Shown here piece after piece: positions 1-3,049 of a DNA stretch of 64,000 bases (position 1 is its first letter; each line of letters opens with the position of its first letter). The stretch covers positions 7,586 to 71,585 of the IMG/VR virus record IMGVR_UViG_3300044713_000064; one strand, given 5' to 3'. The position numbers were made by a program, and so were the translations under genes. The stretch is from a virus (Duplodnaviria > Caudoviricetes). Below the pieces are notes generated by a model. It made no database searches, was not told the DNA's origin, and saw only the letters and a program-made list of their open reading frames with translations.

Positions 1-2
1 TC

Positions 3-536
3 TTCTGTCCCGCGGTCGGGTCGAGTTGCTCGCTCTTGACGATCCGGACGTTGGGTCATCAGCCTGGGTATTTCAACCAAGACGTCATGAGCTATCTGGC
101 TGGAATCCCGGTCACGCTCGGCGGTCCGACGTTGACGTCAGTCGGCTGGCAAGAGGCGGTGACGCTCTCGGCGACGCCAACGCCGCAATTCCTCGTGCCG
201 GATCTGATCTACACCGATTTGAACGGGGATTATAATCCGGCCACAGGCTGTTTCACGCCGCATGTCGCAGGCGTGTACCATGCCGACGCGACGCTGTATT
301 TCCCCTCGGCTCCGGCGAATACCGTGTTCTATGTGTCGCTGTACGTTAACGGCGGCATCATCAAGGCCGATGAAGAGAATGGCACCGGTGGCGTGCAGAC
401 CACGAAGGTCAGCGCCAGCATGTGGCTCAATCTGAACGATTGCCTCAACATCCGGTCGTACAACGGTGCTATCATGGTCGCCAACCCCACGGGGTTCGTA
501 TCGAACTTCATTATCTCGAAAGAATCCCAGAACTAA
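3..536 (+). CDS. Tail fibre/receptor-binding protein, C-terminal C1q-like domain (5' partial)
   Basis: Frame is open from the window start. The GDYNPATGCFTPHVAGVYH...MWLNLNDCL..FVSNF pattern resembles C1q/TNF-like trimeric domains, and the gene lies just before the lysis genes. Confidence 0.6.
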   Translation, partial: FCPAVGSSCSLLTIRTLGHQPGYFNQDVMSYLAGIPVTLGGPTLTSVGWQEAVTLSATPTPQFLVPDLIYTDLNGDYNPATGCFTPHVAGVYHADATLYFPSAPANTVFYVSLYVNGGIIKADEENGTGGVQTTKVSASMWLNLNDCLNIRSYNGAIMVANPTGFVSNFIISKESQN

Positions 537-547
537 GGAGTTGATCG

Positions 548-676
548 ATGCGCCATCCTTTCGAGATCCTGAAGCCGGAATATTCTCAACTGCTCTCCGC
601 GATGGTGATCCGGAAGGAATGCCGCGCCGAGGTCGACCACGTCGCGATGAAGTTGGTCGGGTTCAAGCCTCGGTAG
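548..676 (+). pseudogene. Truncated 42-codon N-terminal copy of the endolysin
   Basis: SD TAAGGAG (534-540), ATG at 548, MRHPFEILKPEYSQLLSAMVIRKECRAEVDHVAMKLVGFKPR then TAG. Aligns without gaps to the first 42 aa of the 1314 ORF (23/42 identical by hand count). Confidence 0.85.
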
Positions 677-705
677 CAACAAATCTGATTTTGGGCTAAA
701 AGGAC

Positions 706-736
706 GGGCGGACGGTTGTTTCAGCAACCGCCGCCC
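706..736 (+). promoter_or_regulatory. GC-rich hairpin upstream of the HNH-AP2 gene
   Basis: GGGCGGACGGTTG-TTTCAG-CAACCGCCGCCC inverted repeat about 30 nt before the ATG at 767. Confidence 0.5.
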
Positions 737-766
737 TAATCACATCAAGCGTCTGGAGCGCGAGAC

Positions 767-1312
767 ATGACTAAAAAGCTTAGAGCAGAGGTCCGAGAAT
801 CCCGCAAGACTTTGACGGTTGAACGTCTCAAATATCTCTTGAGTTATGATCCAGAAACCGGAATTTGGACGCGGATCGTTACCCTAAATCAGATGTCCAG
901 AAAGGGTACTGTCGCGGGAACGGAACATAAAGCTAAACGCAGTTTGGCTATCTACATCCGCATCAAAATTGACGGAAAGGGCTATATGGCCCATCGATTA
1001 GCGTTTCTGTATATGACTGGCAGTTGGCCGGTAAATCAGCCAGACCATAAAAATACGATCGGAACCGACAATCGATGGGAAAATTTGAGAGATGCTACGT
1101 CCTCTCAAAATATCGCCAACAAGAAAAAGGACTGCAGGAACAAATCTGGTTTCAAGGGCGTCTACTACAGCACGCAATACCAAGCCTTCATCGCCTCGAT
1201 AAAAATTCGAGGTAAAACCACAAAAATTGGTATATTCGATACCGCAGAACTGGCTTCTATTGCTTATGAGAGACGCGCTAAAGAGGTCTTTGGCGAATTT
1301 GCGAGGGCATGA
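767..1312 (+). mobile_element. Free-standing HNH-AP2 homing endonuclease
   Basis: LSYDPETGIWT, YMAHRLAFLYMTGSWP, DHKNTIGTDNRWENLRDAT..QN (HNH) and NKSGFKGVY...IGIFDTAELASIAYERRAKEVFGEFA (AP2). More AT-rich than its flanks. Confidence 0.9.
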
Positions 1313-1313
1313 G

Positions 1314-2168
1314 ATGAAGCATCCATTTTCGGTTTTGCAGACTGAATATTCTCATCTGATATCGGTGATGACGGTCCGCGAAGAATGCAAGAAAAGCGTG
1401 GATGAAGTCGCCATCAAACTCATCGGTTTCAGAAGCCGATATAAGCCGGTCACCGATGCCATAGGGGTTCCGATTGTTTTCATCGCATCTTCTTTTGAGC
1501 GCGAATCCGGCAGCGACTTTCGCAAAAATCCAGCCCAGGGATGGTGGCTTACAAGCATATCTCGCGACATCCCCCATAATGGACCATTCCCGGATTGGAA
1601 ATCCGCGGCAATTGCGGCGTACCGGCTCAACGGTCTTGATCAGGTCGGATCTGCGAATTGGACGTGGGAGCTTATTTGCTTCTACGGTGAGATCTTCAAT
1701 GGAACGGGCTACCGTGACGTTCACCATATGCACTCGCCATATTTGTGGGGGGGTACGAACATTCAGACGATTGGAAAATACACAGCCGATGGCGAGTTCG
1801 ACTCGACGAAATGGGACGCGCAGCTCGGCATCGTCCCGGTCGCCCGCCGGATGGTCGAGATTGACCCGTCGTTGGCGCTGCCGAGCGCAGCGATTGCGCC
1901 GCCAATCCATTCCGGCATCGCGGCGCCTGAGACCGGCGTCGATACGAAGTGGGTCCAGACCGCGCTGAACAAGTTGGGCTGGGAACCCCCGCTGCACGTC
2001 GATGGCAGCTATGGCGACAAGACGAAAAAGGCGGTGGAGCATTTCCAGCGTTCCTACAACCTCAAGGTCGACTTCGCCGGGCCCGAGACCGTGGCCGCAC
2101 TTAAGGAAGCGCTGGCTGCGCTCGACGCGCCGAAGGAAGAGCTCGCCTCGCCGAAAGCCTCGACGTGA
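1314..2168 (+). CDS. Endolysin: lysozyme-family catalytic domain plus C-terminal peptidoglycan-binding domain
   Basis: ERES, FNGTGY, SPYLWGGTN, GKYTADG, QLG motifs of the COG5526-like lysozyme family. WVQTALNKLG...VDGSYGDKTKKAVEHFQRSYNLKVD.AGPET matches PG_binding_1. Confidence 0.85.
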   Translation: MKHPFSVLQTEYSHLISVMTVREECKKSVDEVAIKLIGFRSRYKPVTDAIGVPIVFIASSFERESGSDFRKNPAQGWWLTSISRDIPHNGPFPDWKSAAIAAYRLNGLDQVGSANWTWELICFYGEIFNGTGYRDVHHMHSPYLWGGTNIQTIGKYTADGEFDSTKWDAQLGIVPVARRMVEIDPSLALPSAAIAPPIHSGIAAPETGVDTKWVQTALNKLGWEPPLHVDGSYGDKTKKAVEHFQRSYNLKVDFAGPETVAALKEALAALDAPKEELASPKAST

Positions 2169-2368
2169 GCCTGTCCAGGGCGGAGATGCTCCAGGCGGTC
2201 AAGGATGGCCTGATTGACGCGACCAAGGCGCGCGCAGCGAACTGCGCCACCAACGGCATCGGCGAGGGCGTTCCCGCTGCTGCGGCGCAGTTCGAGAACG
2301 GCATGAAAGAGCTGAAAGACGCTTACGCCGCCTTCTGCGCCGTGATAGACATAATTTTCCCCGAATAG
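2165..2368 (+). CDS. Small hypothetical protein in the lysis module
   Basis: GTGA overlap with the endolysin stop; 67 aa. Confidence 0.55.
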   Translation: MSLSRAEMLQAVKDGLIDATKARAANCATNGIGEGVPAAAAQFENGMKELKDAYAAFCAVIDIIFPE

Positions 2369-2377
2369 GAGATCCTG

Positions 2378-3049
2378 ATGCGCCGACTTCTCATCGTACC
2401 GGCCCTGCTGCTGTCCTTGGTTCTGCCGGCTGCAGCGCAGTTTCCAACCGGGCCCGGCGCTCCCGCCGGCGGACCTGTAGCGATCGGTCAGGCGCAGCTC
2501 GTCAAGGACGATGTTGGCAAGGTGGCGCTCATCTCGGCGCCAGCGCCGCCCTCTGGAGGTCTGATCCAGTTTTCCGCCTTCGGCTGGCTTGAGCCATACG
2601 TCGACTCGGTCGCCAATGCGCTGATCCTGGCGCTCGTCGGGTACATGGCAACCGTACTCAAGACGAAGTGGAATATCGACCTCGACCAGGGGCACCGCAA
2701 CGCGCTGACGACGTTTCTGCAGAACCGCGCTGCATCGCTGATCTCCGACGGCGCCGTGAAAATGCAGGGCAAGTCCGTGCAGGTTGACAACGCGATGTTG
2801 GCGCGCGCGGCGAATCAGGCCTCGTTGGCGATCCCGGGCGTGCTGAAGCGATTCGGCCTGACGCCCGACGTGGTCGCCGCCAAAATCGTCGATGCCATCC
2901 CGCAGACGACCGCGGGTGCGGCCATCATCGCCGACGCACATAAGGACAGCCCGGACGCGCCTATTACGGTAACCGATCGCCCCGCGCCGATGGCTGCCGC
3001 CGCCCCAAGCTTCCTCGTCCCGCCCACGGCGCCGCTGACGGCCGCATAA
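2378..3049 (+). CDS. Membrane protein, holin-like candidate
   Basis: SD AGGAG, N-terminal signal/TM segment, second TM (ANALILALVGYMATVL), lysis-module position. Confidence 0.5.
   Translation: MRRLLIVPALLLSLVLPAAAQFPTGPGAPAGGPVAIGQAQLVKDDVGKVALISAPAPPSGGLIQFSAFGWLEPYVDSVANALILALVGYMATVLKTKWNIDLDQGHRNALTTFLQNRAASLISDGAVKMQGKSVQVDNAMLARAANQASLAIPGVLKRFGLTPDVVAAKIVDAIPQTTAGAAIIADAHKDSPDAPITVTDRPAPMAAAAPSFLVPPTAPLTAA

Follow-up and report, generated by a model that had tools for sequence, protein, structure and literature searches.

A homing endonuclease gene next to a truncated endolysin start and a hybrid endolysin gene in a soil phage

Layout of the endolysin locus

The window analysed here, a stretch of 64,000 nucleotides from a soil phage of the Caudoviricetes, corresponds to bases 7586-71585 of the 71,585-base IMG/VR virus record IMGVR_UViG_3300044713_000064, which has direct terminal repeats, an estimated completeness of 100% and a genome GC content of 0.59. 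Near the start of the window, a predicted free-standing HNH homing endonuclease gene is located between a truncated endolysin start and a complete, putative endolysin gene. Pairwise comparison with L002, a nuclease-free relative, showed that the ancestor carried a single intact endolysin gene of the L002 type and that approximately 1.14 kb of foreign, lower-GC DNA stands in place of native codons 43 to ~166. The gene predicted to be expressed is accordingly composed as a hybrid, with a foreign catalytic domain followed by the native linker and peptidoglycan-binding domain. The features of the locus are as follows.

3-536, + strand: tail-fibre-like open reading frame (ORF), upstream context; weak C1q match (E 4.7e-4) and match to a PHROG tail protein; absent from L002
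536-547, + strand: ribosome-binding region of the native endolysin, AAGGAG, read from the sequence; inside a 94% match to L002 3990-4131
548-676, + strand: codons 1-42 of the native endolysin, kept as a relic that ends in a junction-made TAG; 42/42 amino acids and 122/126 nucleotides as in L002
675-676, no strand: left junction, where native DNA meets foreign DNA without homology, from pairwise alignment with L002
676-766, + strand: foreign spacer of 91 nt with a 13-pair hairpin at 706-736; without matches in the loci, the genome or IMG/VR
767-1312, + strand: gene for a free-standing HNH_3/AP2-like homing endonuclease of 181 amino acids, predicted from Pfam and PHROG 99
1303-1307, + strand: GAGGG, predicted Shine-Dalgarno (SD) sequence of the endolysin, within the last nuclease codons and 6 nt 5' of the ATG at 1314
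1314-1810, + strand: foreign 5' part of the hybrid endolysin, about codons 1-166, probably lysozyme-like catalytic domain; 60-63% identical to L002, low GC content at third codon positions (GC3)
1811-1833, + strand: codons 167-174, interval with the proposed homologous crossover on the right; identity to L002 rises abruptly from ~63% to 90%
1834-2168, + strand: native 3' part of the endolysin, comprising the end of the catalytic domain, the linker and PG_binding_1 (PF01471); 299/332 identical to L002, GC3 0.77-0.87
2165-2368, + strand: ORF of 67 amino acids overlapping the endolysin stop, native backbone; same ORF in L002 and L003

The relic at 548-676 (hereafter, the stub) consists of 42 codons and the TAG, with AAGGAG 8 nt upstream and a GC3 of 0.81. 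An earlier note on this DNA, made from the letters alone, had described it as a native endolysin start with a strong SD sequence and GC-rich codons, interrupted by TAG exactly where the intact copy has Tyr and followed by an HNH-AP2 gene and, 1 nt after the stop of that gene, by a second N-terminus with 23/42 identical amino acids. All of these observations were reproduced. The stub ends in CGG TAG, vs CGA TAT at the equivalent place in the downstream copy, and the nuclease stop codon TGA (1310-1312) is separated by one G (1313) from the ATG at 1314, which opens an endolysin gene of 284 codons (1314-2168). The two N-termini (548-676 and 1314-1442) are identical at 23/42 amino acids, 78/129 nucleotides and 18/42 third codon positions, and share a longest identical run of 11 bases. 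Because tblastn of endolysin residues 1-42 against the stub gave an E value of 2e-12, their likeness is not a matter of chance.

The hairpin of the spacer (706-736) folds with -37.7 kcal/mol (z -3.4), and no U-tract follows the stem. A promoter and terminator scan of positions 300-2500 returned 0 promoters and three weak terminator-like sites (2.2 expected), none of which was located at the hairpin. When the spacer was compared with 37 loci and the rest of the genome, only chance 11-mers were found, and the hairpin pattern had 0 matches in IMG/VR.

The nuclease ORF (767-1312) has its own start and stop, with GGAG 8 nt upstream. It matches PF13392 HNH_3 well above the cut-off (E 3.5e-12, 46.2 bits vs 24.8) over profile positions 1-44 of 46, and its C-terminus gives a weak match to PF00847 AP2 (E 3.7e-4, 21.2 bits) that stays below the cut-off of 33.3; many homologues at 44-55% identity have a precomputed PF00847 AP2 assignment. 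Additionally, the ORF matches PHROG 99, HNH endonuclease (E 2.2e-57), and relatives occur in 2462 phage records, all at 48% identity or less. Its predicted product was filed as a member of the free-standing HNH homing endonuclease family, and it is the sole HNH_3 gene in this genome. HNH-AP2 nucleases are a very common class, of which few mapped targets are known to us.

The 284-amino-acid protein was considered a putative endolysin, and its relatives bear the Joint Genome Institute name 'lysozyme family protein'. Residues 208-263 form a PG_binding_1 domain (PF01471, E 5.6e-13; structure matches with Z 8-9.5), and residues 1-190 had no sequence match in Pfam, PHROGs or PDB. In the structure model, which was built on 29 relatives and reached a mean predicted local distance difference test score (pLDDT) of 84, a Foldseek search of the catalytic domain against PDB returned nothing at E <=0.001. 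VIA-align of residues ~10-190 gave modest scores, led by SltB3 (Z 6.9) and followed by MltE (5.7), MltF (5.5), g-type lysozyme (5.3) and FlgJ (5.0), and the catalytic domain is probably of the lysozyme-superfamily fold, similar to lytic transglycosylases or g-type lysozymes. Because a sequence match was lacking in the three databases and the structural likeness was modest, residues 1-190 may represent an undescribed muralytic domain family. The family is large and found in soil metagenomes, as searching with this domain (window 1314-1880) yielded 199 relatives at E <=0.001 among 223 scored candidates.

Glu64 (E64), part of an ERES motif, does not vary across the endolysin family and is presumably the catalytic Glu. 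The stub ends before this residue and, lacking it, is most likely inert. The hybrid, which keeps 62/62 of the alignment columns in which all 29 family members agree and has a modelled fold with a pLDDT of 84, looks functional. Its translation might start from its own SD sequence or by re-initiation after the nuclease stop, and translational coupling with the nuclease is plausible. With no uninterrupted identity longer than 11 bases between the two N-terminal copies, a simple homologous deletion of the element is predicted to be unlikely, which lends some support to the view of the earlier note that the element may be 'hard to lose'.

Comparison with a nuclease-free relative

L002, a related contig of 73 kb, has one uninterrupted endolysin gene of 284 codons and no nuclease gene at this site. 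Over the stub coding region (548-673), all 42 amino acids agree with L002, as do 122/126 nucleotides (96.8%), and the four differences are all synonymous (0 nonsynonymous). For the ribosome-binding site and stub together (536-678), the identity is 94%. It drops to 60% (77/129) at 1314-1442 and 63% (231/368) at 1443-1810, and returns to 90% (299/332) at 1834-2165 and 96% (220/228) at 2166-2393. The pairwise alignment places the left edge precisely: identity to L002 continues through ...CCTCGGTA and is lost thereafter. The TAG of the stub arose at this edge, where the native Tyr43 codon TAT was reduced to TA and joined to a foreign G. On the right side, identity rises from the low to the high level within 1811-1833 (codons 167-174), close to where the catalytic domain ends.

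The base composition follows the same boundaries. The GC3 is 0.48 in the nuclease gene, 0.53-0.63 in 1314-~1800 and 0.77-0.87 from ~1790 on, and the step from ~0.55 to ~0.8 coincides with the identity step. The block 676-1810, with a GC content of 0.482, is the lowest of its size: of 2727 non-overlapping windows of this length across the 71,585 bases of the genome, 0 are as low. This lowest GC content and the GC3 step at the place where the identity to L002 steps mark the block 676-1810 as foreign.

Around codon 43 (codons 34-62, with 9 alleles inspected), the relatives L043 and L050 read AGC CGA TAT, then GCT or AAG, then CCG GT, like the new allele. Given this likeness and a best relative at 74%, both of which place the allele within the diversity of the family, the new 5' part looks like a diverged but otherwise ordinary natural allele that came from a donor of lower GC content, and not like a deliberate recoding.

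Several claims of the earlier note can be judged against these data. Its central proposal, that the native gene was truncated and that a foreign 5' part took over, agrees with L002, which has a single intact gene that agrees with the stub in its first 42 amino acids and is 90% identical to the window in its 3' third. Its impression that the insert and about the first half of the intact endolysin are more AT-rich than the 3' half is matched by the GC3 values. A 5' end was indeed replaced, but the replacement extends over ~166 codons, nearly the whole catalytic domain, and not over 42. The term 'recoded' for this 5' end was not upheld, and the cleavage resistance that the note ascribed to the new allele is a prediction.

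Twelve distinct related contigs were retrieved from IMG/VR (L002, L003 = L040, L004 = L042, L005 = L045, L041, L043, L044 and L046-L050), with upstream flanks of 964 to 4000 bases. Exactly one endolysin N-terminus was present in each of the 12, and an HNH match in the flanks at E <0.1 was present in 0/12; the arrangement that the earlier note had named as speaking against its view, both N-termini without an HNH gene, was thus seen in 0/12 of these contigs. The sequence 5' of the endolysin start was unrelated in 12/12. By blastn, homology to L002 starts at 536, 12 nt before the stub ATG. The gene 5' of the endolysin is of the C1q-like tail-fibre type here and an unrelated 311-amino-acid ORF in L002 (window 1-547 vs L002 3056-3991), forming a sharp mosaic boundary at which homology restarts exactly at the endolysin ribosome-binding site.

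Further searches with the two proteins gave distant matches. In phages, tblastn with the endolysin found one match at 36% identity, in Bradyrhizobium phage ppBjS10J-1, and in species genomes two matches only, both to the peptidoglycan-binding domain. The nuclease retrieved 7 loci in IMG/VR, all at 40% identity or less, and 25 loci in metagenome contigs, at 42% or less over the full length.

A scan for flanking duplications was applied to 38 HNH loci, of which 7 had too short a flank and one, the locus described here, served as the positive control, leaving 30 others tested. Duplications below E 1e-3 were found among these only in L028, where the duplication is real, and in L006/L018 (one contig), where it is unconfirmed. 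In L028, an AT-rich metagenome contig, a ~130-base upstream region and the first ~14 codons are duplicated (1655-1800 and 2316-2461, 88% column identity). The duplication is common to an HNH-AP2 gene, unrelated to that of the window, and the gene after it, and the L028 nuclease appears to have taken a copy of the promoter and start of its neighbour. The tblastx match in L006/L018 (E 1e-4) could not be confirmed as a gene-end duplication: the locus holds a nuclease with a tandemly duplicated N-terminal half. This 277-amino-acid HNH protein (885-1718) contains a degenerate HNH followed by a complete HNH-AP2, and its gene adjoins a candidate capsid ORF.

Other homing elements were observed in the genome to which L002 belongs (G001). 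It has two HNH_3 genes, both elsewhere. One, an HNH-AP2 gene (L052 1294-1833) 39% identical to that of the window, forms a clean insert between genes that are adjacent here (G000:C1:27098-28105); its stop overlaps the next start, and no relic is present. The flanking proteins are 52% and 66% identical, vs a backbone DNA identity of ~85-92%. In the portal gene of G001 (L054 1160-2090), a 930-base Hint-domain intein is present, with a clean empty site here at G000:C1:44499-44501. The portal frame is open through the intein, and the other HNH_3 gene, a 225-amino-acid ORF (1354-2031), is located inside it in another reading frame; this nuclease looks overprinted on the intein and not fused in frame. 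Nuclease genes are actively polymorphic in this phage group.

Related homing systems

The closest geometries were found in fungi. Mitochondrial mobile open reading frames (mORFs) carry a foreign C-terminus into the gene, with the native one persisting downstream, as in Allomyces atp6 and in Glomus atp6, atp9, cox2 and nad3 (available text of PMC3630166). Common to these cases and the present locus are an endonuclease ORF that enters a protein gene together with a foreign gene end, which becomes the expressed end, and a native end that is kept beside it. This native end is near-identical to that of a close relative, and the inserted end is far more diverged. However, mORFs replace the 3' end, frequently lie in the reading frame of the host gene and belong to an organelle genome, whereas here the 5' end is replaced, the nuclease gene is a separate cistron, and the setting is a phage. 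The nucleases of mORFs are not known to be of the HNH-AP2 type. The mobile-ORF hybrid of Allomyces macrogynus atp6 was reportedly described by Paquin et al. in 1994.

WHO elements of Torulaspora/Lachancea replace the 3' end of FBA1 (PMC7282813 and preprint 10.64898/2026.08.13.744650, available sections). As far as these sections describe them, WHO elements also home without an intron or intein by swapping one end of an essential gene for a diverged allele, which leaves a chimeric host gene and, next to the nuclease gene, relic fragments. They differ in acting on the 3' end, in using LAGLIDADG and zinc-finger nucleases, in forming clusters of up to 9 and in having allele-specific cleavage that was shown; here, a single element with an HNH nuclease is found at a replaced 5' end, and its cleavage is a prediction. 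In addition, the switch between native and foreign sequence in WHO elements is described at the cut site, whereas here ~125 native codons beyond the relic are lost. The available sections of the paper and the preprint contain no phage case, and those of the preprint name 'bacteriophages' once, in a general sentence on the occurrence of homing elements.

In phages, the free-standing nucleases of T4-like phages (SegF, SegG and MobE; 'intronless homing', marker exclusion) resemble the present case in that an HNH or GIY-YIG gene beside phage genes is polymorphic and associated with co-conversion (PMC2988022 and PMC2790892, available text). As described there, they differ by homology repair on both sides, with no duplicated gene fragment left. 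One-sided homing in T4 is similar in having homology on one side and a non-homologous or microhomology junction on the other after resection, but it concerned a laboratory construct with an intron (PMC2988022, available text), and here a natural event with a free-standing nuclease gene is proposed. Gene-splitting nucleases, namely, mobE in Aeh1 nrdA and mobA in T4 gene 39/60, likewise are free-standing nucleases inside a once-continuous essential gene (PMC2988022, available text). In those examples, as far as described, both pieces are needed and nothing is duplicated; at the present locus, the gene after the nuclease is whole and the fragment before it is redundant.

Phage lysin genes, such as lysK of staphylococcal phage K and those of Streptococcus thermophilus phages, can contain group I introns with HNH nucleases. 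There, too, the endolysin gene is the landing place of an HNH homing nuclease. These introns, however, are spliced at the RNA level; here, no ribozyme was detected, and the gene would be restored by its replacement 5' end.

The present arrangement was filed as an analogue and not a member of the WHO/mORF kind because the opposite gene end is affected, the nuclease fold is different, and recurrence was not observed. A literature search of open-access full text, by word matching only, found no case of end replacement with a relic in a phage. Intronless gene invasion by end replacement is known from fungi and rarely documented in phages.

Origin and meaning of the hybrid gene

The explanation that we favour, with a confidence just past even, is a nuclease-associated gene conversion with homology at its right side (1811-1833) and none at its left side (675/676). 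In a cell infected by both phages, the nuclease of the donor would have cut or nicked the sensitive native allele between codon 43 and ~170. The right end would have been resected to a stretch similar enough to the donor, at 1811-1833, and repaired by homologous recombination. The left end would have lacked a homologous partner, given that these phages have different genes upstream of the endolysin, and it may have been joined illegitimately at 675/676, that is, by 'one-sided' homing. A cassette of the 91-nt spacer, the gene for the HNH/AP2-type nuclease and ~166 codons of a diverged endolysin allele would in this way have been copied into the native gene. The first 42 codons would remain as a dead stub ending in the junction-made TAG, and the hybrid endolysin would be read from the SD sequence in the 3' end of the nuclease gene, by fresh initiation or re-initiation. 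One-sided homing with illegitimate microhomology junctions was shown in T4 (available text of PMC2988022, citing Parker et al. 1999).

Several points weigh against this explanation. No donor was found, and any microhomology at the left junction would be visible only against its sequence. A DNA search of the phage records returned no match; the closest nuclease relative among 5.8 billion proteins, on a contig of 1,448 bases, is 73% identical, and the closest relative of the foreign N-terminal (catalytic) domain is 74% identical. An endolysin of this family was found in 0/32 of the HNH loci L006-L037. The arrangement is a single instance, with both assemblies of it probably from one sample. Across the 9 alleles inspected at codons 34-62, nothing special in the new allele hints at resistance. 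Finally, the activity and target of the nuclease are only predicted, and its gene may have travelled as a passenger when a block was exchanged by ordinary mosaicism.

A second explanation, unlikely in our estimate but a rival of real weight, views the locus as a self-contained homing cassette for 'gene-end replacement', the mirror of WHO elements and mORFs, in which the stub was already present in the donor as a working part. The stub, pairing with codons 1-42 of the recipient, would act as the left homology arm and the shared 3' third as the right arm, and every homing event would copy the nuclease together with the resistant 5' allele and renew the stub. In mirror image, this model fits the locus as well as one-sided homing does. 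Its geometry corresponds point for point to the WHO model, with a nuclease gene, an adjoining resistant expressed end and a displaced native fragment (PMC7282813, available sections). The mitochondria of Glomus and Allomyces show an equal geometry, with identities of 91-98% for the native ends and 64-81% for the inserted ends (PMC3630166, available text), compared with 96.8% and 60% here. The stub is undecayed, with 0 nonsynonymous and 4 synonymous differences from L002, but a recent one-off event predicts this equally well, and because an undecayed stub is expected under both models, it does not separate them. Moreover, neither a second instance (0/12 relatives) nor a donor was found, and the genome, in which the nuclease is the sole HNH_3 gene, shows no accumulation of nucleases or of relics from earlier events. 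Also against this model, the phage group's other HNH-AP2 insertion is clean, intergenic and without a relic.

Ordinary phage mosaicism is a further alternative, and we consider it similarly improbable. The block would have been exchanged between co-infecting phages by illegitimate or short-homology recombination, with the nuclease as an uninvolved bystander in it. Module boundaries at gene edges are common here. The L002 homology starts exactly at the endolysin ribosome-binding site, the upstream genes differ in all relatives, and cleavage by the nuclease is a prediction. On the other hand, the nuclease gene is located exactly at the break in the target, and its block is the strongest compositional outlier of the genome. 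The second HNH-AP2 gene in the phage group is also situated between unusually diverged flanking genes. Nuclease genes were reported at boundaries of exchange between phages (PMC10448857, available text), and the free-standing nucleases of T4 are described as driving the co-conversion of flanking DNA (PMC2988022, available text).

That the assembly fused two related phages of one metagenome into a chimera is very improbable, even though the record is a metagenome assembly and both assemblies may come from one sample. A second assembler produced a contig of 71,488 bases (depth 30) that is the same over 300-2300; the run behind it possibly represents the source sample. Because two assemblers agree over this interval, the junctions are not the artefact of one of them, although the second contig is not an independent sample. 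Additionally, the runs of at most 11 identical bases between the N-terminal copies are too short for a k-mer join, and the record closes with direct terminal repeats at an estimated completeness of 100%. Hardly credible, finally, is a joining of the stub to the downstream body by splicing of a group I or II intron or by ribosomal bypass as in T4 gene 60: TA (674-675) and T (1442) would join in frame, but, in line with the intron-free invasion proposed in the earlier note, no Rfam intron family was found at E <=1 in window 1-3000 on both strands (5 sub-threshold chance matches only), the supposed intron would enclose an entire second N-terminus, homologous to the first, whose SD sequence is its own and whose ATG occupies the homologous position, and we know of no precedent for a bypass of 766 nt.

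It is conceivable, but doubtful, that phages possess a 'third category' of homing element of their own beside introns and inteins, consisting of a nuclease and a resistant gene end that replaces the end of an essential gene, with the stub as a re-homing arm. If this were true, homing nucleases would be engines that swap whole endolysin catalytic domains between phages, and the L028 duplication would be a second trace of gene entry at the 5' end. Under the gene conversion that we favour, the locus suggests that a free-standing homing nuclease can enter an essential phage coding region by carrying along a replacement for the displaced sequence, with neither an intron nor an intein nor a division of the gene involved. 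The hybrid would be a natural domain swap, in which a foreign muralytic domain was combined with a native wall-binding domain, and it bears on the origin of endolysin modularity. Moreover, the empty site of L002 gives a precise pair of alleles, sensitive-type vs element-linked, for the target specificity of HNH-AP2 nucleases.

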